64,000 nucleotides of DNA from Myxococcota bacterium (GTDB lineage: Bacteria; Myxococcota; JACRCW01), in the NCBI GenBank assembly GCA_040752415.1, contig JBFMGU010000020.1:1-64000 (forward strand). The letters run 5' to 3'. Made by a program: the position numbers and the translations under genes. The notes beneath the pieces are model-generated. The model made no database searches. It was given only the letters and a program-made list of their open reading frames with translations, and was not told the origin of the DNA. How positions within the stretch are numbered: position 1 is the first letter of the stretch; every line of letters starts with the position of its first letter. This document shows, piece by piece, positions 9,942 through 21,942 of this stretch.

Positions 9942-10238
9942 CTACTTCTGCTTCTTCGCGGGGGATTTCTTCGGGGCGGAGTCCAGCTCGCCACGCATCA
10001 GGTAGGCCAGCACCATCAGGTGCACCTTGCGCGCCGTCTCCTGGCGGTCGTCGTCCGGGCCCATGGCCCTGGCCATCGCCGCGAACACGCCGAGCAGCGA
10101 TTGACCGATCTCGTCGGTGACAAGCTGGTCCAGGTCCTTGGCCGGTATGGACTGGACCGTCTTCAGCGCCTCGAGCGCGCGCGCTTCATCGGGTGCGGAC
10201 ACGGTGGCCTCCGAGCAGGACCACACCATCCCCACCAC
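9942..10238 (-). CDS. Small hypothetical protein
   Basis: Good codon usage, helical sequence, Lys-rich tail. The true start may be the GTG of SAPDEARAL. Confidence 0.6.
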   Translation of the reverse strand: MVGMVWSCSEATVSAPDEARALEALKTVQSIPAKDLDQLVTDEIGQSLLGVFAAMARAMGPDDDRQETARKVHLMVLAYLMRGELDSAPKKSPAKKQK

Positions 10239-10329
10239 GAGCTCACCGTGTCAATCCGCAGCCGACCAAAACAGCTGCGGCGCACGAACCGGGTTGGCTC
10301 GCACGCCGCACGTCGGGTTGCTCCAGGCT

Positions 10330-10677
10330 TCAGTTGGCGTGCGCCTTCACCTTGTGGTGCAGCCGCTGGTTGTACTCCTTCAGCTGCCGCTCGGCGGCAC
10401 CGAATGCGTCGCGAATGGCAATGTAGACGTCCTCGTGGCTCTGGTCGCTGCCATGGTCGCGGTTCACCACCAGCTCACCGCCCGGAAGCACGAGGTCAAT
10501 GTTGATCTGATAGGTGCGGCCCTTGTGTTGATGCCGGTGCGGCGCGGAAACCACCACACGGCAGCTCGTGATGTCGTTGTGATGGCGAATCAGCTTCTCG
10601 TAGCTCTCGCGAATGCGCTCCTCGACGGCAGGGGAAGATGGAATGTCGCGGAAGGTGATGTGCATTGCCGAGTCCAT
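10330..10677 (-). CDS. hpf: HPF/RaiA-family ribosome-associated (hibernation) protein
   Basis: MHITFRDIPSSPAVEERI, SCRVVV, HEDVYIAIRDAF..AERQL. AGGAGG RBS. Confidence 0.85.
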   Translation of the reverse strand: MDSAMHITFRDIPSSPAVEERIRESYEKLIRHHNDITSCRVVVSAPHRHQHKGRTYQINIDLVLPGGELVVNRDHGSDQSHEDVYIAIRDAFGAAERQLKEYNQRLHHKVKAHAN

Positions 10678-10711
10678 GGATGGAGCTCCTCCTTTGGCGC
10701 CACGAAGCAGT

Positions 10712-10726
10712 GCAGTGGACATGCCA
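10712..10726 (-). promoter_or_regulatory. Putative sigma54 promoter of the HPF gene
   Basis: Minus strand reads TGGCAT-GTCCA-CTGC (-24/-12 spacing), about 35 nt upstream of the ATG. Confidence 0.55.
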
Positions 10727-10826
10727 GCGCCCCCCCACCCGGAGGAACCCGGTGCGGATGAGCCAGGGAGGCAATTCCTGCCGGATGGGAACGGGAGTGT
10801 ACGCAGGATGTGCGGAGGCGAACGGA

Positions 10827-11570
10827 TTACTTCGCTTGCCAGGTGCCGCCCCGCAGCGCCCAGGTCTGCTGGTAGTTCTCGTCGTCACCCGGGGCCACCT
10901 CGCGCTCCACGCTGCCGTCCTCGCGGATGGTCCACTTCTCGTCCCACTTCTCGTCGCGGTCCAGGTCCACCTTGGCGCGATTGAAGCGTTTTCCGTCGTC
11001 ACTGTAGAGGTTCACCTTGAACGCGGTCTTGCCGGTGGCGTCCTTCACCTTGTCCTTCACCGGCTGCTTCAACGCCGCCAGGACCGCGTTGTCCACGTCA
11101 CGCAACCCCGGCGCGGGCGCAGCCGCGGGCGCGGAAGGGGCGGCGGGAGCTTGGGCCGCGGGAGGAGCACCGTCACCCTGCCAGGCGCCGTCGCGGAAGG
11201 TGAGCGCGCGGTTGTAGGTCTCGTCGTCGGCGGAAGAAACCTCGCGCTTCACCACGCCGTCCTTCAGCTCCCACTTCTCGTCCCACTTCTCGTCGCGGTC
11301 CAGGTCCACCTTGGCGCGGTACCAGCGACCACCCTCCGCGTAGAGGTTCACCTTGGCGCCGCTCCCCAGCGCGTCCTTGAGCTTGTCATCCTGCGCGGGC
11401 GTCCCAAGGCGTTGCAGCAGGAATTCCACGTGACCGGTCCCCGGCGCCACCGGCGGAAGGTTGGCGGACTTCTTCGGCGCGTCGGGGCGCGTGGCCACGT
11501 ACGTGATGGCGCCGCCGGCGACGAGGAGACCCGAGCCCAGCACGATGTTGCGGAATGTCCTGTATTTCAT
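10827..11570 (-). CDS. Membrane-anchored/secreted protein with two tandem copies of an uncharacterised domain
   Basis: N-terminal hydrophobic helix. KVNLY..RAKVDLDRDEKWDEKW..REV..DDE.Y occurs twice, separated by an Ala/Pro linker. Confidence 0.8.
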   Translation of the reverse strand: MKYRTFRNIVLGSGLLVAGGAITYVATRPDAPKKSANLPPVAPGTGHVEFLLQRLGTPAQDDKLKDALGSGAKVNLYAEGGRWYRAKVDLDRDEKWDEKWELKDGVVKREVSSADDETYNRALTFRDGAWQGDGAPPAAQAPAAPSAPAAAPAPGLRDVDNAVLAALKQPVKDKVKDATGKTAFKVNLYSDDGKRFNRAKVDLDRDEKWDEKWTIREDGSVEREVAPGDDENYQQTWALRGGTWQAK

Positions 11571-12508
11571 GCGTCATCCTCCGCGCGGGCACGTCGGACG
11601 GCGTCCTGCGCGCCCTCGGTGGGCATCATCCCCCGGGAGATGGGGACGGTACAGTTGCAGTAGCGGTACAGGCAGGGCGTGGCCGCCTCGCGCAGGCGGA
11701 AGGTGCCGTCCAGCATGTTGCCCAGGCTCTCGGTGCGGTAGCGACGGGCGGGATAACAGCGGTACGCGTTCCCGCGATCGTCGAGGATGAAGTAGCGCGC
11801 ACCGGACCAGCACGGACGACCGCCGAAGTCGGGAGCCACGTAGCCCGTCAGGTTGTGCCCGCCCAGCTGCACGAGCTGCGCGAGCTGGCCCTCCGAATAC
11901 GCCACGACGTCACGCCCCTGCTTCTCCGGCTGGACCTTGAAGGTGAGACCCGCGGACGCCATCCGTTCCTTCAACGCGGAAAGGCGCAGAAGGTTCGTTT
12001 CCGTCGCCACGCAGGTCACACACAGGGACGCGCCCCTTGGGAGACGCTCCTTCACAAAGCGGGCGTGCGTGATGAACCGCTCCAGCGCCTCCTCGGTGTC
12101 GACGTACTCCAAGTGCAACGAGCAGCTCATGACACCGAGCTGATCACCCGCCGCCTCGAGGAACCCGAGCAGGGTCTCCTGGGAGGCGCTGAAGTTGGTG
12201 ACCACGCTGATGAGGAAACCCAGCTCACGCAGGCCGCGCACCACGACGAGAAAATCCGGGTGGACGAACGGCTCCCCGCCGGAGAGCTTGATCTCCCAGC
12301 GGCCCGGCAGCCTCGCGAACGCTTCCAGGAAGCGCGGGACGTCGCGGGCCCAGCGGCCGCGGTCGTCGAGGAAGCGCTGGGTGCAATACGAACACCGGTA
12401 GTTGCACGTGGTGTTCATGTTCCAGCTGATGACACCGCGCGCGGGCTCCGGCGTGGGAGCGAGGCTGGGCAGGTTCCCAGGAAGCGGCGGGAGCGGCTCA
12501 GGCTTCAT
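11567..12508 (-). CDS. Radical SAM protein with C-terminal Cys-rich (twitch/SPASM-like) domain
   Basis: CNYRCSYC, SGGEPF, VVTN. C-terminus CWSGARY..G..YRC..LGN..CLYRYCNC. Confidence 0.9.
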   Translation of the reverse strand: MKPEPLPPLPGNLPSLAPTPEPARGVISWNMNTTCNYRCSYCTQRFLDDRGRWARDVPRFLEAFARLPGRWEIKLSGGEPFVHPDFLVVVRGLRELGFLISVVTNFSASQETLLGFLEAAGDQLGVMSCSLHLEYVDTEEALERFITHARFVKERLPRGASLCVTCVATETNLLRLSALKERMASAGLTFKVQPEKQGRDVVAYSEGQLAQLVQLGGHNLTGYVAPDFGGRPCWSGARYFILDDRGNAYRCYPARRYRTESLGNMLDGTFRLREAATPCLYRYCNCTVPISRGMMPTEGAQDAVRRARAEDDA

Positions 12509-13448
12509 CCGGCTCCTCGCGGGTCACGTGCGCGGCCACACCCTCGATCATTCCGCGATTGGCCGGCACGCTGCACGGGCAGATGGTGTACGGGCACAAC
12601 ACCGGACCATGGCGCAGGCGGATGCCGGTGCGCAGGTTGCCCAGGAATCCCTCGCCGTGGCGTCGTGCGGACCGACAGGACCAGGCGTCTCCATCCTGCA
12701 GCAGCACGAAGTAGCGCGCGCCGGTGAAACAACGACGACCGGTGTACGCGGGAGCCATGTTGGCGCTGCGCGTCTCCTCCGCCAGCCGCAAGTCCCCGAC
12801 GATGGCGCGCACCTGCTCCATCTGCTCGCGCGTGTACGCGTGCACGCCCTTCTTCACCTTCATGAGCTGGGGAAAGAACCGGAAACCCGCGGCGCGGACC
12901 TTCTCCGACGCCACCTGGACCTCCGCGAGTCGCTCCGGCACCAGCACGGAGTTCACCACCATGCGCGTGTCCGCGTGCACCATGTCCCGCACGCGTTGCA
13001 GCTTGGCCAGGAACTCGTCGGGAGTGGTGAACTCGAGGTGGAGGCTGGCGGAGATGATGTTGAGCCGCCCGTGGGTGAGCCGTGCAAAGCGTTCCAGCAC
13101 GGACAGCGGCGCGGAGAGGTTGGTGAGGACGGAGATGCGGTGGGGCAGCGCGCACAACCCGGGGATGATCCGCTCGACGAACCCCCTGAACGCGAAGGGC
13201 TCGCCGCCGGTCATCTTGATTTCCCAGATTCCCTCGAGATTCGCGAAGAGCTGGAGCGCGCGCGTGATCGTCTCGTCGTCGGGATGGCCCACGCGGGAGG
13301 CCTTGGACTGGATGCAGTAGCTGCAGTCGTAGTTGCAGACGCCACACACCTGCCATTCCACGGTGGGCTGGTGGGGCCACGGTGGCGCGGATGGCCCGTC
13401 GAGCACGGTGCCCTCGTCCGCGGTGACGACGGGAAGTCGCGTGCTCAC
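12498..13448 (-). CDS. Radical SAM protein, paralog of the downstream gene
   Basis: CNYDCSYC, TGGEPF, VLTN. C-terminus CFTGARY..GDAWSC..LGN..CPYTICPC. Confidence 0.9.
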   Translation of the reverse strand: MSTRLPVVTADEGTVLDGPSAPPWPHQPTVEWQVCGVCNYDCSYCIQSKASRVGHPDDETITRALQLFANLEGIWEIKMTGGEPFAFRGFVERIIPGLCALPHRISVLTNLSAPLSVLERFARLTHGRLNIISASLHLEFTTPDEFLAKLQRVRDMVHADTRMVVNSVLVPERLAEVQVASEKVRAAGFRFFPQLMKVKKGVHAYTREQMEQVRAIVGDLRLAEETRSANMAPAYTGRRCFTGARYFVLLQDGDAWSCRSARRHGEGFLGNLRTGIRLRHGPVLCPYTICPCSVPANRGMIEGVAAHVTREEPDEA

Positions 13449-14575
13449 GGCAAGACCCTCAGCGCGTGCGTTGCCAATTTGGGACGTGCTCCCGCACCAC
13501 GACCGGTGACTTCACGCCAACGCTCCTCGCCGTACACGGCACGGAACCGCTCGCTGAGCTTCACGTTCTGATTGAACTTCCCGCACTGCTCGCATCCCGG
13601 GAAATACTCGCCGCGCCGCATGCGATCCCGCAGGGCATCCCAAGCCTCGCTGCGCCACAACGTCGAGAAACGGCCATCCACGTGGAGCTGGCCCACCTGC
13701 ACCTCGGTGTTGCAGCAGTACAGCACCTCCCCGTCGACGGTGACGCGGCTGTAGTGATACCCGAGGAAGCAACCGACCTCGGCGATGGGCGCGGTGGCCT
13801 CTCCGCCCGCCTCGAGCTGCAAGCGCAACACGTCCAGGTTGGTCTCCACCCCCAATGCCGCGGCGCGGGCCTCCGCTCGGGAGACCCCCTCGGTCATCAT
13901 CTGCGCGCGCTGCTGGTCGGTGATGCGGGCACGCTCGGTGCCGCGCGCCAGGGAGGCGAGCTTGAAGTTGACCTGCTGGGCACCGTAGCGGTGGGCCTGC
14001 TCCACCATCTCCGTGAGCTCGTGCGCGTTGCAGCGGGCGATGACCTGGACGTGCTTGAAGCGTCGTCCCGCGTCGTGGAAACGCCCCAGCGCGGTGTGCA
14101 GGCGCTGCCAGTGCGCGCTGGTGAAGGAGGGATGGAAGTCCAGGTACGCGCGCTCGCTGGCGCCGTGGACTCCAATGAGCAACTGGTCCACGCCGAGAGA
14201 GAGGACCTGCTCCGCATCCGCGGCGACGAGGTTGGTGATGATGGTGAGATGCAGGCCACGACGTTTGACGTCGGCGATCATCCGGTAGATGTCCGGGTGC
14301 GTGAACGGCTCTCCCATCCCGGAGAGGATCACCGACTCGAGCCCGCCCAGCGTCTGCACGTCGTCAAGGAGCTGCGTGACGTCGTCCGCGGTGACCCGCC
14401 GCCGCTTCCACTCGCCGTCGCGCGGCTGGTCCAGCAGCGGGCTGTGGTCCCAGCAGGTGATGCAGTCGGTATTGCAGGAATTGGTGATGTCCAGGTGGAC
14501 CGTCTGCGGACCCAGGCGATTCACGCCGTCGTGGAGGCTGGCGAGGCGCTGCGCGGTGGGAGACGGGCGCTTCAC
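13445..14575 (-). CDS. Radical SAM/SPASM-domain protein
   Basis: CNTDCITC, SGMGEPF, IITN. CFLGY..VDGEVLYCC..G.L..W..CEQC. GTG start overlaps the glycosyltransferase TGA. Confidence 0.88.
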   Translation of the reverse strand: MKRPSPTAQRLASLHDGVNRLGPQTVHLDITNSCNTDCITCWDHSPLLDQPRDGEWKRRRVTADDVTQLLDDVQTLGGLESVILSGMGEPFTHPDIYRMIADVKRRGLHLTIITNLVAADAEQVLSLGVDQLLIGVHGASERAYLDFHPSFTSAHWQRLHTALGRFHDAGRRFKHVQVIARCNAHELTEMVEQAHRYGAQQVNFKLASLARGTERARITDQQRAQMMTEGVSRAEARAAALGVETNLDVLRLQLEAGGEATAPIAEVGCFLGYHYSRVTVDGEVLYCCNTEVQVGQLHVDGRFSTLWRSEAWDALRDRMRRGEYFPGCEQCGKFNQNVKLSERFRAVYGEERWREVTGRGAGARPKLATHALRVLP

Positions 14576-16242
14576 TTGGCCAGCTCCGACGTCGTCAGAC
14601 GGGCGCGCGTGCGCTCCAGCAGAACGCGGTTGGGAACCTCCTGGGTGCCATCCCACTGCGCCTCGGTCATGGCGCGCGCCACACCAAAGAGGTCCGTTCC
14701 GCCTTGCGCTCCCAACTCAACCACCTGACACAATTGTTCCACCAGCGCCGCCGCCGGCAGCTCACGCTCGCTTCCCAGCGTCCTGGCCAGGGTGACCAAC
14801 GCGGACCACTGCCCGCGCACGCCGGGGTGCTCCAACAACGCGCCAATGGCCTGCGCCACGTCGGAAGGACTCCCTCCACTGCCCCGCAGCTTGCGGCCGA
14901 GCAGCGAAACCAGCCGCGTGGTCACCGACGTGGAAGCACCACACCCCTGCGCGGTCTCCAGGAGCTCCATGGCGGGCTCGGGGTCCAGGGCCGCGCGATC
15001 CACGTCGTCACCCGCCAGCGCAAGCGCCACGTCGACCAGCTCCCCCAGCGCCACACCGGTCGCTCCGCAGCGGACCAGCAGCTCCTCGTCGACGACACGC
15101 ACGGCATGGCGCACCACGCTCGGCGGAAGGACCAGCTCCAACAGCTGCGCGGCGGCGTCACGCGCGTGGTTGGTGGGAACCAGCTTGCGCGCGGCCTGGG
15201 ACAACGCACGAGCCTTGGCGGGGTCCTGCAACGTCGCCATCGCGGCGCGCAGGGCGTCGTCGTCGTTCTCGTTGACGCGCAGGGCGGCACCGGCGGCCAC
15301 CAGCGCGTCGACGCGACCTTCCTGGTCATCCGCGATCTTCTCCTGCGGCATCAGCACCGTGGGCACGCCCAGGAACATCAGCTCATGAACGGTGTTGAAG
15401 CCCGCGGCGCACACCGCCCCGTCGACACCGTGCAGGTACGTGGACAGGCCCGGCTCGGTCCACCAGGTGATGCGCGGTCCGCGGAGGGGCCTGCCGCGAT
15501 ACAGCGGGCCGGCGGCCAGCACCACGTGCACGTCGTCACGGCTGCCCACAAGAGCACAGATGCGCTCCAGCCGCGCTTGCACCGTCGCATCACCGCCACC
15601 ACCCGCGGACACCAGCAGACAGAAGCGCTCACCTTCCACGCCCAGCGTGCGTCGTGCTTCGTCGCGCGGCACAAGGTCGAGCCGCTCGGGCACCATGATC
15701 GGTCCGACGTGGCGGAGGGTTCCCTTCGGCAGGTCCAGCAGCTCCGCCATCCCCGGCGCATTGTCCTCGTGCTCGGGGACGAGGATGCGGTCATACAACG
15801 CCGCCACCGCCTTGAACGCCGCGCGCCGCGCGAGGTCCTCCTTCACCGGCCGCAGCACCAGCGCCTTGTGCCGACACAGGTCCAGCACGCCCAGCAGCTC
15901 CTGGAAGGAACCGTTGGGAAAAGTGTCGACGAGGAAGAGGTCCGGCCGCAGCAATGCCACCGAGTGCCACACCCACTGCTTGGCCAGCGCCAGGTAGGTC
16001 TGCTTGTGGATGCCCGCCTCCTCCACCACGGACTTGCTGGGCATCTTGAACGCGGCGAATCCCTCCGCGAACAGCATGGTGTCCGCTTCCGACGTCGTCA
16101 GGAACCAGTGCTGCGTGCGCACACCGGCAAACGCCGCATAACGACGCATCCAGCGGTTGATGGCCATGAGCCGGGAGAGATGCCCCAGGCCGGAGCCGTT
16201 CACCGCATAGCTGACCAGGCTGAGCGTGCGCGGCAGTTCCAT
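14572..16242 (-). CDS. GT-B glycosyltransferase (GT28/MurG-like C-terminal domain) with extra helical C-terminal extension
   Basis: NGSGLGHLSR, LVSAGGGG, CAAGFNTVHE..GVP, DDQ..R motifs. Confidence 0.85.
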   Translation of the reverse strand: MELPRTLSLVSYAVNGSGLGHLSRLMAINRWMRRYAAFAGVRTQHWFLTTSEADTMLFAEGFAAFKMPSKSVVEEAGIHKQTYLALAKQWVWHSVALLRPDLFLVDTFPNGSFQELLGVLDLCRHKALVLRPVKEDLARRAAFKAVAALYDRILVPEHEDNAPGMAELLDLPKGTLRHVGPIMVPERLDLVPRDEARRTLGVEGERFCLLVSAGGGGDATVQARLERICALVGSRDDVHVVLAAGPLYRGRPLRGPRITWWTEPGLSTYLHGVDGAVCAAGFNTVHELMFLGVPTVLMPQEKIADDQEGRVDALVAAGAALRVNENDDDALRAAMATLQDPAKARALSQAARKLVPTNHARDAAAQLLELVLPPSVVRHAVRVVDEELLVRCGATGVALGELVDVALALAGDDVDRAALDPEPAMELLETAQGCGASTSVTTRLVSLLGRKLRGSGGSPSDVAQAIGALLEHPGVRGQWSALVTLARTLGSERELPAAALVEQLCQVVELGAQGGTDLFGVARAMTEAQWDGTQEVPNRVLLERTRARLTTSELAK

Positions 16243-16245
16243 GGG

Positions 16246-17538
16246 TCAGCTCGCGTCGTGGAAATGGTCGTCGTGGTGGGCGTGGTGGTCATGCGCCAGC
16301 GCAGCCACGGCGTGATCATCATGGTGATGGTGGTGATGCCAGTCCGGGTGGTGATGGTGGAACTCCGCCACCTCCGGGATGAAGTTCCCGTCGAGGTGAC
16401 CGTCGGTCATCACGTCCCACCAGAGAAACTCGGTGAGCGGGTCGTAGCGGTAGTAGCTGTCAAACACCACGATCTGGTGGCACGCGTTGTGATAGCGGTT
16501 CCAGCGCTTGTCCCACGACGAGCGGCGGCTGCGGTAGCGACGATCGAAATCAGCCTGGCGGATGCGCACCCCGGCGTTCTTGGGTCGTTGGAACTTGATG
16601 ATGTCCTTCTCATTCCTGGCGATGGCCTGCTTGAGGTCGTCGCGCGGCTTGAGGACCATCTCGCGCAGCAGTTGATCGAGGTAGCGCTGCTTGGCCTCCA
16701 CGCCGGCAATGCGCTTGACCGCGAGTGTGGCGCCCTCGTTGCCCGCCACCAGATTGAGCTTCTCGTCGTCACCCAGCGACTGCAGGTGCTCCCGGACCAG
16801 CGCACGGGCGCGGGCCAGGTAGGTCTGCGGAAGGCCCTGCAGCGCGCGCTGCGCGTCGTCAAACTTCTTCACCAGGCTGTCGACGCGGTGCTTCTCCTGG
16901 CGGAGGCTTGCGCACGCGGATTCCAGGCTGCGCAGCGTGTTGCGCTCCTCCAGGAACTTGAGGCGCAGCTGCCCAAACTCGGTGATCTTCAGCGCGGGAC
17001 CGTATTTCTCGACGAGGAGATCGCCGTGCTTCCAGTGCCGGTAGTAGCTCGCCGTCCACCAGCCCTGCTGGTACGCCTCGGTGCCGTAGCCGCTCTGGAG
17101 CAGCTCGTCGAACATCGGCTCCTGCTGTAGCCCTTCCACCGTCTCCTTCAGCGGGCCCATGAACTCCTCGAGCTCGCGCATGCGCACGGAGATCTCGGTG
17201 AGCTTACCCTCGCGGTGTTTGAACAGCGGGTCGGCCTGCACGGTGGCGAGCACCTGCTCGAGCCGGTTCTTCTCGGCCTGCGCCTCGCCGAGCAACGTGC
17301 GCGCGGAGACGGCGGGAAGACGGAGCGCCTGGGCGGCGGCGTCGAGGTGCGCGGCGTCCACCGAGGGGACCAGCTGCTCCGTCAGGTTCCGCCACGCGCT
17401 CTCCTGCTCGGCGGCCACCTGCTTCTGCAGCTCGCGGTTCTCGCGCTCCGCGCTCTCCATGCGCGCCAGCTCCGCCCGCAGCTCCGCGTTCTGGGCCTGC
17501 GCCGCCCGGACCACCTGCGCAGCGGACACGTCGGTCAT
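16246..17538 (-). CDS. Coiled-coil hypothetical protein with His-rich C-terminal tail
   Basis: Long E/Q/L/R heptad stretches, aromatic-rich motifs, 18 His in the last 37 residues. ATGA overlap with the upstream gene. Confidence 0.85.
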   Translation of the reverse strand: MTDVSAAQVVRAAQAQNAELRAELARMESAERENRELQKQVAAEQESAWRNLTEQLVPSVDAAHLDAAAQALRLPAVSARTLLGEAQAEKNRLEQVLATVQADPLFKHREGKLTEISVRMRELEEFMGPLKETVEGLQQEPMFDELLQSGYGTEAYQQGWWTASYYRHWKHGDLLVEKYGPALKITEFGQLRLKFLEERNTLRSLESACASLRQEKHRVDSLVKKFDDAQRALQGLPQTYLARARALVREHLQSLGDDEKLNLVAGNEGATLAVKRIAGVEAKQRYLDQLLREMVLKPRDDLKQAIARNEKDIIKFQRPKNAGVRIRQADFDRRYRSRRSSWDKRWNRYHNACHQIVVFDSYYRYDPLTEFLWWDVMTDGHLDGNFIPEVAEFHHHHPDWHHHHHHDDHAVAALAHDHHAHHDDHFHDAS

Positions 17539-17876
17539 GCACCCCCCTTGGCGGCGCGACGGCGCTCCACCTCGTCGAGAAAACGCGAGGCACCCCACTC
17601 CAGCTCATAGGCTTCCATGGCCTGGTCGATGATGAAGAAGAACAGCTCTCCCTTCTTCATGCGCTCCACCAGCTCATTCATCTCGTCGCCGTCGAGGTCT
17701 TCGTAGTCGCCGGCGCCGTGGGTCATGTACTCGAACCCCACGCGCTTCACCGGGTCCCACCCGTCGGCGTTGAAGGAGACGTTGCCCTCCTGGAAGTGGA
17801 CGTTCTCCTGGATGGAATACCCACGAGCCTCGAAGATCTTCTTGAGGATGGCGCAGCCTTCTGCTTCCGTCAGCAT
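17535..17876 (-). CDS. Small hypothetical protein, possibly PD-(D/E)XK nuclease-like fold
   Basis: 113 aa with good codon usage. E(helix)..FNADGWD..RVGFEY pattern. Confidence 0.7.
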   Translation of the reverse strand: MLTEAEGCAILKKIFEARGYSIQENVHFQEGNVSFNADGWDPVKRVGFEYMTHGAGDYEDLDGDEMNELVERMKKGELFFFIIDQAMEAYELEWGASRFLDEVERRRAAKGGA

Positions 17877-18075: not shown

Positions 18076-20307
18076 ATGACGCTGGTGCCAAGCCGGTTGG
18101 AAGCCGTCAAGATCTACCACAGCGGTGCCACCATCCAGCGCGTCGTCGAGTGGCGGCCGGAGGCGGGCAGCTGGCCGCGCGAGATCGAGATTGCGCCGCT
18201 GCCCCTCGCGTTGGTGGATTCCACGGTGCGCCTCCGCGTGGAGTCGGTGGATGCACCGGGCGCGGAGCTGGAAGCCCACGAGCTGCGCGTGGGTCTGTAT
18301 GCGCCGCCGCGAGAGCTCGTCGTGGAGCCACCCGAGGAGAAGGAGCTGCTCGAGGTGGAGCGCGCGTTGCGGCTCAAGCGCGAGATGCTGGATCACGTGG
18401 TGATGGAGATGGACATGCTGGGCGCCATCCCCGTGCCGGAACGTCCCCACGGCGAGGAGGGCAAGCCGCCACCGCCCTCTCCCATGGCCGCGCGCGTGGC
18501 GTTGGAGCAGTTCACCGAGCAGGCCGTCGACAAGCGCACCGCGGAGCGGAAGGCCCTGCGCGCGGAGATCGACGTGCTGGAGAAGCAGGCGGCCGAGCTG
18601 CGTGACCGTCAAACCCGCGCCTCCAGCGCCCGACAGGTGTCGGCGCAGGAGATCTCCAAGACGGTGATTGCGCGGCTGCATCACCACGGCGCGCCGTTCC
18701 AGAGTGCGCGACTCGTCCTCGAGTACTTCATCCCCGGTGCGCGTTGGGCGCCGGCGTACCAGGTGCGTCTCACGCGCGATTGCCAGCAGGCGGAAGTGCA
18801 GTTGCGCGCGCTCATCTGTCAGCGCTCCGGCGAGGATTGGAAGGGCGTGAAGGTGACGCTCTCGACGGCAGCGCCCATGCGCTGGACGGAGATTCCCGAG
18901 CTGGCCAGTGTGCGCGTGGGTCGAGCGCAGCCGGCTCCGTCGAGGAAGACGGGGTTCCGGGCGCCGCCGCAAGGCGCAGGCGCGTTGTTCCAGGACTTCG
19001 ACCGCGACCGCGAGCTGCTGCTCCACACACTTCCCCGACGAGCGACGTGGTCGTTGCGTGCCGCGGATGGCATGGAGAGGGAGAGACACGGAGCGTTTGG
19101 CGGCGTCACGCAGGTGGCCATGGCACCGCCGCCTCCACCGCCTCCGCCGCCTCGTTCGCCCGCTCCCACGAAGGCGGCGATGATGAAGACCGCGGCGCTG
19201 GACATGCGGGCGGAGCAGGCCCGGGACGTCGGTGAGGCGGCCGTTGACGACGAGTTCACCGCTCTCGCGGAGCCTTCCTACGATGCCTTCGAGGAAGACA
19301 CCACGCCGCCGCAGGGCGCTCCCGTCGCCAAGCCCGCCCCCGCACCTGCCGCCGCGCGCGCGCCCGTGGCCCGTGCCAGGGGTGGTGGACCGGGCGCACC
19401 GCCCCCGCAAGCACCGCAGTCGCTGGATGACTTCACCCTGCTGCGGCTCAGCAATCCCGACGACGCGAGCGGTCGCGCCCGGCTGCGCGCGTTGGACTCC
19501 CGCACCGCGTACCTGGAGACGCTGGAGCGGGCCAAGGGGGAGATCGTGGTCGACGTGGCCACGCTGGTGAACAGCGCGCAGGAGCTGGCCGCGCAGATTG
19601 CCGCGCTGCCCCTGCCCCGGGGCGCGGTGAACGTGCGCAGCGCCGCGGGCGAGGCGTTTGACTTCGCGTATCACGCGGACGGCGTCGTCGACGTGCCCTC
19701 CGACGGGGTCTTCCACTCCGTGGCGCTGGGGAACCGCACCGCGGAGGCGCAGGTGCAGTACGTGGTGGTGCCGCGCGAGGACTCCAACGTCTACCGCGTC
19801 TCCGTCATCAAGAACCCCACCGACGCGCCGCTGCTCTCCGGTCCCGCGGAGATCTACGTGGGCGGCGAATACGTGCTCACCACCAACCTGCCCACGGTCC
19901 GTCCTCGAGGCCAGATCACGCTCGGCCTGGGCGTGGAGCAGGCCATCAAGTGCGCGCGCAACACCCAGTTCCGCGAGGCGCGCAGCGGCAGCAAGGTGGT
20001 GGCCATGACGGAGCTCTGGCACGACATCACCATCCAGATCGTCAACGGGCTGGAGCGCAACATCGACTGCGAGGTGCGCGAGCGCATTCCACAGCCGGCC
20101 AAGGGCGCGGAGGTTGTCGTCGAGGAGGGCGAGGTCAGCCCGGCCTGGAGCACCTATCCGCAGGTGGAACGCGGGGCGCCGCTGGAAGGTGGTCGGCGTT
20201 GGATGATCATGGTGCCCGCGCGCGGCGAGAAGACCCTGAAGGCGCAGTACGTCGTCAAGATCTACGCCAACAACGAGATTGTGGGCGGCAACCGGCGGGA
20301 GGCCTGA
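18076..20307 (+). CDS. DUF4140/DUF4139 domain protein (MuiA-like) with Pro/Ala-rich insert
   Basis: V.IY..GATI.R start, LEYFIPGARWAPAY, QRSGEDWKGVKVTLSTA, VPSDG..HSV, LLSGPAEIY, VRERIP. Confidence 0.85.
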   Translation: MTLVPSRLEAVKIYHSGATIQRVVEWRPEAGSWPREIEIAPLPLALVDSTVRLRVESVDAPGAELEAHELRVGLYAPPRELVVEPPEEKELLEVERALRLKREMLDHVVMEMDMLGAIPVPERPHGEEGKPPPPSPMAARVALEQFTEQAVDKRTAERKALRAEIDVLEKQAAELRDRQTRASSARQVSAQEISKTVIARLHHHGAPFQSARLVLEYFIPGARWAPAYQVRLTRDCQQAEVQLRALICQRSGEDWKGVKVTLSTAAPMRWTEIPELASVRVGRAQPAPSRKTGFRAPPQGAGALFQDFDRDRELLLHTLPRRATWSLRAADGMERERHGAFGGVTQVAMAPPPPPPPPPRSPAPTKAAMMKTAALDMRAEQARDVGEAAVDDEFTALAEPSYDAFEEDTTPPQGAPVAKPAPAPAAARAPVARARGGGPGAPPPQAPQSLDDFTLLRLSNPDDASGRARLRALDSRTAYLETLERAKGEIVVDVATLVNSAQELAAQIAALPLPRGAVNVRSAAGEAFDFAYHADGVVDVPSDGVFHSVALGNRTAEAQVQYVVVPREDSNVYRVSVIKNPTDAPLLSGPAEIYVGGEYVLTTNLPTVRPRGQITLGLGVEQAIKCARNTQFREARSGSKVVAMTELWHDITIQIVNGLERNIDCEVRERIPQPAKGAEVVVEEGEVSPAWSTYPQVERGAPLEGGRRWMIMVPARGEKTLKAQYVVKIYANNEIVGGNRREA

Positions 20308-20310
20308 GCC

Positions 20311-21942
20311 ATGACCACCACAATGGCAACCACGCAACGCTCGGAGCGCCTGTTCCCGCCCGTCGATCCCGAGCGGCGCGCGGTGGACTGTCCCGTCGTG
20401 AAGGTGACCCTCCTGGAGGACCGTGCCCAGGTGCAGCGCAGTGCGCGCATCACGGTCAAGAAGGGGCACAACACGCTGCGCATCATGGAAGTGGCGCCCG
20501 TGCTGCAGGACGTGAGCCTGCGCGCGGAGAGCGGGGCCGGCGGGACCGTGCTGGACGTGCGGGTCCGTCGGGCGCTGCGCATCCTCGAGGTGGACAAGCC
20601 GGAGGAAGCGCGTCGGCTGGAGGCGGAGATTGAGCGGCTCACGCGGGAGCTGCGCGATCTCGACGAGGAGCGGGACCGGCTGGACCAGCGCCACCGCATC
20701 ACGTTGGAGATCGTCTCCAAGGGCGCGGGCGAGGTTCCCGACGACGCGGGATGGGGCCTGGTCAATCCGCAGGTCTGGCACGACACCTTCGAGTCGCTGT
20801 TCAAGAAGGCGCGCACGCTGCGGGAGCAGGTCATGCACCTGGGCGCGCGTCACGAGGATCTCACGCGCGAATTGGACCGGCTCATCCGCGAGCGCAAGGC
20901 CATGGACCGTGTGGACCATCATCACGTGGCGTGGCTGGAGGTGGACGTGCAGGCCGCTTCCGACGGGGAGGTCGATCTCAGCGTGGGTTACGTGGTCCCC
21001 AATGCGCTATGGCGGCCGTGGCACTCCGCGCGCCTTTCCGGGACGGGGAGCCTGCGGTTCCAGTCGTTCGCCGCGGTCTGGCAGAACACCGGCGAGGATT
21101 GGCGTGACGTGGAGCTGGTGTTCTCGACGGCGCGCTCGTCGCTGGGAACCAATCCGCCCACGCTCACCGACGACCTGCTCACCGCGCAGCGCAAGAGTCC
21201 CGAGGTGGTGATCCAGGCGCGCGAGGTGGCGATCCAGAAGGCGAGCGTACCGGGTGGGCCCGCGGGTGGCGGCGGCGCGCCCGCGATGCCAGCGACGGTG
21301 GACCTGCCTGGCGTCGACGACGGTGGCGACGTGCAGAACCTGAAGGCGCCCCAGCGCGCCACCGTGCCGTCCGACGGGAGACCGAACCTGGTGCCGCTCA
21401 GCACCTTCGAGACGCCCGCGCAGGTCAGCCTGGTGTGCATGCCGGAGCTGGAACCGGTGGTGTTCCTGCGCAGCATCCAGGAGAACGCGGGACGTCATCC
21501 CATCCTCGCCGGACCGGTGGAGCTGGTGCGGGACAGCGGCGCCGTGGGTTGGACGCGGGTGCTGTTCGTGGCGCCCAAGGAGCGCTTCCAGCTGGGCTTT
21601 GGGCCGGATGATGACCTGCGTGTGACCCGACAGGTGGACAAGGAATCCGAGGTCGACGACGTGGGCAAGTGGAACATCACGGTCACCCAGGTGCAGGACT
21701 TCATCAGCAACCTGGGCGGCACGGACAAGGAGCTGGAGCTGGTGGAGCGCATCCCGGTGTCCGAGATCGAACACGTGAAGATCACGCTGCTGGCCGACAA
21801 GACCGATGGGCAGCCCACCGTCGACGACAACGGGCTGGTGACCTTCAAGGTGAAGGTGGGTGCACACAAGCATGAACGTGTGCGAATGTTCTGGCGCGCC
21901 GCGGTGGCCCCGGGCGTGAACGTTCCGCGACTGCGCGGTTAG
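20311..21942 (+). CDS. DUF4140/DUF4139 domain protein (MuiA family)
   Basis: VTLLEDRAQVQR, YVVPNALWRP, QNTGEDWRDVELVFSTA, VPSDG, ILAGPV, ERIPVSE. Confidence 0.88.
   Translation: MTTTMATTQRSERLFPPVDPERRAVDCPVVKVTLLEDRAQVQRSARITVKKGHNTLRIMEVAPVLQDVSLRAESGAGGTVLDVRVRRALRILEVDKPEEARRLEAEIERLTRELRDLDEERDRLDQRHRITLEIVSKGAGEVPDDAGWGLVNPQVWHDTFESLFKKARTLREQVMHLGARHEDLTRELDRLIRERKAMDRVDHHHVAWLEVDVQAASDGEVDLSVGYVVPNALWRPWHSARLSGTGSLRFQSFAAVWQNTGEDWRDVELVFSTARSSLGTNPPTLTDDLLTAQRKSPEVVIQAREVAIQKASVPGGPAGGGGAPAMPATVDLPGVDDGGDVQNLKAPQRATVPSDGRPNLVPLSTFETPAQVSLVCMPELEPVVFLRSIQENAGRHPILAGPVELVRDSGAVGWTRVLFVAPKERFQLGFGPDDDLRVTRQVDKESEVDDVGKWNITVTQVQDFISNLGGTDKELELVERIPVSEIEHVKITLLADKTDGQPTVDDNGLVTFKVKVGAHKHERVRMFWRAAVAPGVNVPRLRG

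Follow-up and report, generated by a model that had tools for sequence, protein, structure and literature searches.

A widespread, apparently undescribed bacterial gene cassette pairs a glycosyltransferase with proteins that end in [D/E]-x-Ser

A seven-gene operon in the genome of a Myxococcota bacterium (11 Mb in 520 contigs) raises two questions: (i) which of its genes form a conserved unit and (ii) on what do the enzymes that it encodes act. The operon occupies positions 10827..17876 of a 64,000-nt stretch of DNA, referred to here as the window, and consists of seven open reading frames (ORFs), all on the minus strand, which we number g1–g7 in transcription order. They encode a glycosyltransferase (GT), three radical S-adenosylmethionine (SAM) enzymes and three proteins (g1, g2 and g7) that match no Pfam family. 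The answer developed below is that g2 and the GT constitute the core of the cassette, and that the cassette enzymes would seem to act on the C-terminal tail of g2, which ends in [D/E]-x-Ser. This last proposal is drawn from sequence comparison, and we hold it with slightly more belief than doubt. The features discussed are as follows.

g1, 17535..17876, minus strand: 113 aa from ATG; accessory protein with a restriction-endonuclease-like (Vsr/DUF559-like) fold
g2, 16246..17538, minus strand: 430 aa; all-helical elongated bundle; core protein and proposed target
g2 C-terminal tail, 16249..16368, minus strand: residues ~391–430; variable His/Ala/acidic linker with the end D-A-S (codons 16249–16257)
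g3, 14572..16242, minus strand: 556 aa; GT-B glycosyltransferase, the GT of the cassette; core protein
g4, 13445..14575, minus strand: radical SAM enzyme with a SPASM/twitch-type C-terminal domain
g5, 12498..13448, minus strand: radical SAM enzyme, paralogue of g6
g6, 11567..12508, minus strand: radical SAM enzyme, paralogue of g5
g7, 10827..11570, minus strand: bitopic membrane protein with two beta-meander domains
g7 N-terminus (M-K-Y-R-T-F), 11553..11570, minus strand: conserved short segment ahead of the transmembrane helix, assumed to be cytoplasmic

An initial annotation of this DNA had described seven coupled minus-strand genes, and every junction read off the sequence is as it claimed. 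The g1/g2 and g6/g7 junctions are ATGA, g3/g4 and g4/g5 are GTGA, g2 and g3 are separated by a 3-nt gap (TGAcccATG), and g5 and g6 overlap by 11 nt. Homologues back the short starts used here for g1 (ATG at 17876) and g4 (GTG at 14575).

The C-terminal motif, which had gone unnoticed in the initial annotation, is evident when g2 homologues are compared. A g2-seeded pattern scan with one genome per species, all of them metagenome-assembled genomes (MAGs) or assemblies of uncultured isolates, gave 68 loci, and all 64 of the complete g2 ORFs that they contain end in [D/E]-x-S (58 with Asp, six with Glu). The same end is found in 131 of 134 further family representatives (50% identity) from an exhaustive search; one more ends in Ser, and of the two exceptions one is a truncated protein. 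Among 1875 control ORFs of at least 150 aa from the 68 loci, a terminal Ser occurs in 188 (10%) and a terminal [D/E]xS in only 18 (1%). The terminal Ser of g2 is specified by all six Ser codons (TCG 22, TCC 16, TCA 15, AGC 8, TCT 2 and AGT 1), all three stop codons are used after it, and the spacing between g2 and the GT start can be anything from -10 to 754 nt. Because the codons, stops and spacing are all free to vary, the constraint acts on the protein and not on the DNA. The possibility that D-x-S is a by-product of the GT ribosome-binding site is rejected by the use of six Ser codons and by the variable g2–GT spacing.

The segment that joins this end to the rest of the protein is variable in sequence, with 22–76 aa following the FIPEV motif of the folded part. 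Predicted disorder and a range of lengths are what one would look for in an arm that has to enter active sites. The His-rich tail that led the initial annotation to call g2 a His-tailed coiled coil is indeed present in the window copy, but is not conserved in the family. One orphan paralogue of g2 lies among unrelated metabolic genes with no GT nearby (locus L006, G001:C86, 3515-4807); in this single case the head motifs are degenerate and the protein ends in ...DDDDDKKT, with no terminal Ser.

For the first question, the composition of the cassette was established at each locus by tblastn with the seven proteins, with g1 and g7 counted by profile search. The GT lies immediately 3' of g2 in 64 of the 68 loci; three of the other four end at a contig edge, and L054 has no GT within 1.5 kb. 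The complete order g2-g3-g4-g5-g6-g7 is found in 29 of 68 loci, 18 of which also have g1. Since it recurs in so many g2-seeded loci from many phyla, this gene order far exceeds chance. The dedicated system with conserved synteny that had been suggested from the window is thus borne out by the gene-neighbourhood analysis, and homologues are not scattered. The seven genes do not, however, form an obligate unit as had been supposed. Reduced forms consist of g2-g3 (seven complete loci), g2-g3-g7 (six) or g2-g3-g7-g4 (five), and in three loci of the Armatimonas type g4 and g7 are divergent and located 5' of g2-g3. Overall, g4 is present in 46/68 loci, g7 in 43/68 and g1 in 26/68. Clustering of all ORFs from the 68 loci gave no additional conserved neighbour family; the clusters that rank next consist of histidine kinases, Ser/Thr kinases, cyclases and ABC ATPases, whose positions vary. 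Because the GT adjoins g2 nearly everywhere, reduced forms exist and no other neighbour is conserved, the core is g2 plus the GT, and the three radical SAM enzymes, g7 and g1 are accessory modules.

The cassette is widespread. As labelled, the 68 loci span about ten phyla and include Myxococcota, Acidobacteriota, Armatimonadota, Bacteroidota/Ignavibacteria/Kapabacteria, Chlorobiota, Spirochaetes, Gloeobacterales, Planctomycetota, Ozemobacteraceae/Riflebacteria, Actinomycetota and Clostridia, and cassette enzymes from different phyla are 50–65% identical. A word-based search with g2 returned 34 proteins of ~420–440 aa, none with a Pfam domain. The g2 family numbers 690 clusters at E<=1e-3, and 327 at the stricter E<=1e-30, in an exhaustive profile search of 1.84 billion representatives. 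Of 401 genomes sampled from the phylum, 18 have g2 and 39 have a member of the GT family (E<=1e-30). We considered whether the cassette is confined to MAGs and rejected this idea, as homologues of the GT and of the tetratricopeptide repeat (TPR) proteins described below carry NCBI names of named species.

The initial annotation had recognised no described pathway with this gene set, and none has come to light. No match at a curated NCBIfam cutoff was obtained for any of the seven proteins, Pfam gave generic domains only, PADLOC gave just weak pVip matches on the radical SAM cores, and a full-text literature search found no description of the cassette, within the literature searched and with the proviso that other papers could describe it. 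A recurring match in that search, PMC7159879, concerns vWA-MoxR systems in the part retrieved and is unrelated. The cassette is therefore apparently undescribed.

For the second question, the most informative loci are those in which accessory modules are missing or the tail protein is of a different kind. The GT-only loci L041, L050, L053, L057, L068 and L069 retain the [D/E]-x-S motif, which identifies the GT as the universal partner of the tail. A second class of loci was found in a search seeded with the GT homologue P0073, NCBI-named from Enhygromyxa salina. Here the GT is shorter, at ~360–375 aa, and 24 of the 172 genomes examined from one myxobacterial family possess it. Directly 5' of it is the gene for a protein that combines TPR repeats and a coiled coil with a signal peptide, a transmembrane helix and a Cys4 motif. 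In locus L133, the short GT shares 40% identity with the g3 catalytic part and is followed by a radical SAM/SPASM enzyme (rSAM1) that aligns with g4 along its entire length at 42% identity, by a second radical SAM enzyme (rSAM2) that is 38% identical to g5 and 36% to g6, and then by a GT2 and a DUF1206 protein. Two other class-2 loci have GT, rSAM1 and rSAM2 in one case and GT and rSAM1 in the other. None of the class-2 proteins could be assigned to a curated family; rSAM1 scores 46.3 bits against MftC and rSAM2 49.2 bits against STM4011 (NF038073), both below the cutoffs.

The class-2 TPR protein shows no homology to g2 by hhalign (probability 0.2%), a value that also led us to reject a W..DG..P..H.P.Y module common to g2 and the TPR family as a sign of shared ancestry. 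The TPR protein ends in W-[RK]-D-H-S in 19 of 20 loci, and 34 of 34 aligned sequences of its family end in D-x-S; these include proteins that NCBI names as from Stigmatella aurantiaca, S. erecta, S. hybrida, Cystobacter fuscus, C. ferrugineus, Hyalangium minutum and H. versicolor. In another family, a 603-aa variant of the tail protein with the GT alone beside its gene ends in D-R-S. A metagenome scan seeded solely on the GT catalytic domain gave 80 loci, 77 of them with an assessable 5' ORF, which ends in Ser in 72 and in [D/E]xS in 60. No partner other than the GT occurs in all forms, and the unrelated proteins encoded 5' of it have nothing in common but a terminal [D/E]-x-Ser on a flexible tail; recognition and modification of this tail by the GT is the simplest reading.

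In the mechanism that we propose, g3 would recognise the flexible g2 tail ending in [D/E]-x-Ser-COOH and glycosylate it, most likely on the hydroxyl of the terminal Ser, after which the SPASM-type enzyme g4 and the paralogous pair g5/g6 could tailor the sugar or the tail residues. The membrane partner would be g7. Class-2 tail proteins have membrane and periplasmic functions built in, in cis; g7 may provide the equivalent in trans by means of its calcium-loop-like domain in the periplasm and the short, conserved peptide at its N-terminus. Its N-terminal peptide is a candidate contact or second acceptor, and g1 may be an optional partner. That the tail serves as a substrate rather than for docking we infer from these comparisons, and the choice of residue, the sequence of steps, the sugar and the purpose are proposed on the same footing. 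Where the initial annotation had named the coiled coil and the membrane protein as possible targets, the comparative evidence favors g2 on account of its terminal motif, with g7 still a candidate for a second acceptor.

Several observations weigh against a modified tail. A role in docking or degradation would account just as well for an invariant C-terminus. Among the 77 GT-seeded metagenome loci, 12 have a 5' ORF that ends in G-Y-[LI]-S or L-L-S, mostly the former, and five have no terminal Ser; these five comprise a frameshifted g2, a spaced Armatimonas-type locus, a short contig and two unexplained cases. A divergent g2-like protein in genus g26, located beside a GT, a different radical SAM enzyme and two paralogues with a DxD-like motif, ends in P-P-E-S. 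The N-terminus of g7, with Thr or Ser at position 5, is a second possible acceptor and cannot be distinguished from the g2 tail in this respect. The radical SAM enzymes leave no room for an N-terminal RRE domain, because their CxxxCxxC motifs begin at residue 34 (g4), 38 (g5) and 35 (g6). Among curated models, these enzymes come closest to a mixed set (cofactor maturases, MoaA, viperin and BlsE), always far below cutoff, so a small-molecule substrate is possible. Finally, the N-terminal domain of g3 resembles GT1/GT28 enzymes that act on lipids or aglycones in general terms only.

The G-Y-[LI]-S/L-L-S subgroup is of the g2 type (L169, L171, L176, L190, L191, L197, L209, L210 and L216–L219); all of its members retain the GT, and all except L209 also have g4.

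Examination of g3 is compatible with an enzyme that activates an acceptor hydroxyl. The protein matches the Pfam Glyco_tran_28_C model (26.7 bits, cutoff 22) and consists of a GT1/GT28-like catalytic part of ~380 aa and a helical C-terminal extension. Residues N15, G16, G18, G20, H21 and R24, which form an NGxGxGH..R loop, are invariant in the family, as are D106, E287 and Q307; the H21/D106 pattern is one that we take to resemble the GT1 His-Asp catalytic pair that activates the acceptor hydroxyl. When the g3 profile is compared with solved enzymes, only the nucleotide-sugar domain (~255–368) matches YjiC, MurG and OleD, and the score against the MurG equivalog model (TIGR01133) is 37.4 bits, well short of its cutoff of 250 and confined to the C-terminal domain. 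Searches of the PDB with g3, g4 and g6 by phmmer and by profile gave generic domain matches only.

The resemblance of the g3 donor domain to MurG and GT28 enzymes suggests another role for the cassette, in which a modified glycolipid or other glycoside would be assembled at the membrane by its enzymes, g2 would serve as a BAR-like scaffold whose Ser-tail does no more than dock or regulate the GT, and g7 would handle the product on the periplasmic side. The predicted structure of g2 bears directly on this idea. The AlphaFold2 (AF2) model has a mean predicted local distance difference test (pLDDT) score of 93.7 and is entirely helical, an elongated bundle with a small conserved head, and the last 10 residues are disordered. 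The head contains the motifs GYGTxxY, W..SYY.DW and FLWWDVMTDG.LDGNFIPEV, and its WWD...DG.FIPEV signature is invariant in the family. Foldseek against the PDB found nothing for g2 at E<=1e-3, and a Pfam scan of 32 members gave coiled-coil noise and no family. With VIA-align, chains of FES, Imp2, CIP4 (F-BAR), BAR and arfaptin are among the top structural rows, as a membrane scaffold would predict, but their Z values of 8.5–9.3 (best 9.3) are under the noise bar of ~13 for helical bundles. The absence of an RRE, the weak matches of the radical SAM enzymes to the sugar- and nucleotide-acting BlsE, MoaA and viperin, and the presence of another radical SAM and DxD-like-motif proteins in genus g26 and in five metagenome loci would also suit this role. 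Conserved genes for a lipid carrier, a flippase or nucleotide-sugar synthesis are nevertheless missing from the vicinity, and a docking scaffold leaves unexplained why two unrelated proteins share a terminal D-x-S. We consider this explanation unlikely.

The radical SAM enzymes are themselves well conserved. Pfam places the Radical_SAM domain above cutoff in g4, g5 and g6, and SPASM above cutoff in g4 only. Each keeps the CxxxCxxC motif together with five further Cys residues: C269, C287, C288, C328 and C331 in g4 (46/46 sequences), C240, C258, C285, C290 and C292 in g5 (32/32) and C233, C251, C279, C284 and C286 in g6 (30/30). Since these residues are kept in every member, all three are likely to be active enzymes. 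The initial view of these enzymes as of the twitch/SPASM type agrees with the CxxxCxxC motif and Cys-rich C-terminus of all three, with the correction that g5 and g6 (~33–35% identical to each other) have the five conserved C-terminal Cys without a Pfam SPASM match. In the closest relative (L008/L005, G001:C35), the g5 orthologue is split into two overlapping pieces in different frames (query residues 1–186 and 185–304), which suggests a frameshift or an assembly error.

A fixed C-terminus, a radical SAM/SPASM enzyme and a GT encoded together also recall cofactor biosynthesis. In the mycofactocin (MftA–F) and PQQ (PqqA/PqqE) systems, products are made from fixed residues at or near the C-terminus of a peptide, and mycofactocin requires an MftA precursor of ~30 aa that ends in Val-Tyr, the RRE protein MftB, the peptidase MftE and a GT2 enzyme. 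The present cassette is like these in having an invariant extreme C-terminus, a radical SAM/SPASM enzyme and a GT in one operon, and it could be read accordingly, with the tail as a built-in core peptide whose D-x-S is converted to a glycosylated small molecule (a cofactor or signal) and cleaved off, and the large protein as leader and scaffold. A variable linker with a fixed end would suit a swinging arm, and g4 matches the mycofactocin maturase model MftC (TIGR03962) over its full length with an E-value of 1.3e-11. That match amounts, however, to 44.3 bits against a cutoff of 265, and the PqqE score is 39 bits against 381. No MftA-like precursor, MftB or MftE is found among the seven genes, and no RRE (PqqD-like, ~80 aa) or stand-alone RRE protein appears in their Pfam/NCBIfam output. 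The cassette differs further in that its tail is borne by structured proteins of 430–600 aa, that it has no RRE chaperone, peptidase or flavoenzyme, and that its GT is a GT-B enzyme (GT1/GT28-like) and not a GT2. With no peptidase or hydrolase conserved in the cassette, with GT-only versions in existence, and with a 430-aa, well-folded and highly conserved protein as a costly single-use precursor, release of a small molecule from the tail seems to us quite improbable.

If the tail is instead modified and retained, the closest precedents also differ from the cassette in important respects. In class IIb microcins such as MccE492, the C-terminal Ser bears a glycosylated siderophore, and a GT1-family glycosyltransferase is encoded in the locus. 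The likeness, compared by description, lies in a conserved C-terminal Ser and a GT, whereas the cassette lacks siderophore/enterobactin, MceIJ-type, export and immunity genes, includes radical SAM enzymes and has large cytoplasmic or membrane proteins as its putative targets. GtfA/GtfB, which act on serine-rich adhesins, and EarP, which acts on EF-P, are GT-B protein glycosyltransferases that modify internal Ser or Arg sites and are not known to have radical SAM partners. They are encoded beside the specific protein on which they act, as is proposed for g3, but belong to different GT families with which g3 shares only the generic donor domain, and the site proposed here is C-terminal. The paired radical SAM cassettes of the Haft type (HxsABCD, with its His-Xaa-Ser motif, and STM4011/STM4012) likewise combine a SPASM enzyme, one or more non-SPASM paralogues and a protein with a Ser-containing motif. 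The scores are far below cutoff in this case too, at 49.1 (g5) and 43.2 bits (g6) for the STM4011 family (NF038073, cutoff 200), with most of the model aligned, and at 16.7 bits for HxsC (cutoff 268). To our knowledge, HxsABCD and STM4011/STM4012 include no GT or g2-like protein and have no known function; the single paper found to name STM4011 reportedly concerns a Salmonella regulator.

A modified tail, if real, would be of some consequence. It is tempting to suggest, tentatively, a new kind of protein C-terminal modification, found in some ten phyla and in culturable myxobacteria among them. A dedicated GT-B enzyme would glycosylate a free terminal Ser that unrelated scaffolds present on a flexible tail, and as many as three radical SAM enzymes would then convert it into a new covalent end group. 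This group might act as an anchor or a signal, or bind metals or take part in redox chemistry, and through it a helical scaffold in the cytoplasm would be linked to a sensor domain in the periplasm. SPASM-type radical SAM enzymes are usually associated with small peptides; here, full-size proteins marked by a terminal [D/E]-x-Ser alone would be processed by a GT and SPASM-type radical SAM enzymes, a new enzyme–substrate logic for bacterial post-translational chemistry. The proposal also provides a testable substrate for three radical SAM families, one GT family and at least two families of 'hypothetical' proteins. Stigmatella, Cystobacter, Hyalangium and Enhygromyxa are culturable organisms, and genetics should be possible with the sister cassette found under the NCBI names of the first three.

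The accessory protein g7 has a conserved N-terminus, a transmembrane helix, a low-complexity linker and a beta domain of ~90 aa, of which the window protein has two copies. Its description as a duplicated-domain membrane protein thus applies to the window, but the duplication is lineage-specific and most homologues have one domain. In the AF2 model, the transmembrane helix spans residues 3–27 and the second domain has a pLDDT of ~96; the beta-meander domain includes a DLDRDxKWDEKW loop. As for g2, the Foldseek comparison that the initial annotation recommended gave no PDB match for g7 at E<=1e-3. The best VIA-align score (Z 6.6, DUF3836) is not significant, nor are those of the GtfA, SdgB and TarM beta-domains that occur among the structural rows (Z 5.2–5.7), and structural and language-model leads to EF-hand, FG-GAP and dockerin domains are weak (<0.9). 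The N-terminal motif is M-[KRN]-[YF]-x-[TS]-F, with F6 invariant and M1 and T5 nearly so in 34 aligned sequences. A pattern that leaves positions 4 and 5 free, M[KRN][YF]xxF, directly precedes the transmembrane helix in 35 of 43 g7-family ORFs, and position 5 is T or S among the matches listed (S at L055 and L060). Loci that lack radical SAM enzymes retain the motif, as do those that have them.

The initial annotation had called g1 nuclease-like and suggested that the system as a whole might serve in conflict or envelope stress. The first point may hold at the level of the fold, in that the ESM Atlas structure neighbours of g1 are Vsr/DUF559 proteins, with a TM-score of 0.61 only and no Pfam family behind it. 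Residues E4, D38, G39, D41, E49, T52, D57 and D84 are invariant in 24 homologues, and in our own reading E4, D38, E49 and D84 may map on a PD-(D/E)xK motif with Thr at the usual place of Lys. Where present, g1 is always located just 5' of g2. A restriction-endonuclease-like protein together with viperin-like radical SAM enzymes could act against phages or competitors, and the patchy spread of the cassette over many phyla, with g2 in only 18 of the 401 sampled genomes, is what one might expect of a defence system. All three radical SAM enzymes give weak pVip matches in PADLOC, but these lie on their generic N-terminal cores and are below NCBIfam cutoffs; the best (NF038283, cutoff 180) reaches 49.5 bits and covers only residues 26–132 of g6, whose viperin-like matches are all of this kind. 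Moreover, g1 is missing from 42 of the 68 loci, the enzymes retain an identity between phyla that is unlike that of fast-evolving defence genes, and no g2 relatives are found in the viral contigs or plasmids searched. The flanking genes that we looked at encode kinases, cyclases and metabolic proteins, with no scan aimed at defence families. The suggested role in conflict or envelope stress is thus unsupported, and we regard a defence function as very improbable.

Some loci have other genes beside the core. L041, L050 and L068 form a g2-g3-only subgroup with the head motif I-N-E-V; 5' of g2 are a TerB/DUF533-domain protein in L041 and L068 and a multihaem cytochrome in all three, and L068 has a second protein, TerB/DUF697, 3' of the GT. 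In L101 (G070, 10600-14005) and in the metagenome loci L148, L151, L153, L157 and L158, an alternative accessory set on the opposite strand beside g2 and the GT replaces g4–g7. In L101 it is composed of a different radical SAM enzyme of 379–479 aa and two paralogous proteins of 325–419 aa with a DxD-like motif. The five metagenome loci have one DxD-like match, with the radical SAM enzyme in L151 and L153 only.

In the window, the operon is flanked by genes that are not part of the cassette. A gene for an HPF/YfiA ribosome-hibernation protein (10276-10722, minus strand) begins 104 nt 3' of g7 on the same strand and is followed by a strong, 15-pair terminator-like hairpin (10310-10276). It may be co-transcribed with the operon in the window genome only, and it is outside the conserved gene set. 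An ORF of 98 aa that lies 3' of it (9942-10238, minus strand) matches no Pfam or NCBIfam family. On the other side, and divergent from the operon, are tandem DUF4140/DUF4139 proteins of 743 and 543 aa (18076-21942, plus strand), a pair that is not kept beside the cassette at other loci.

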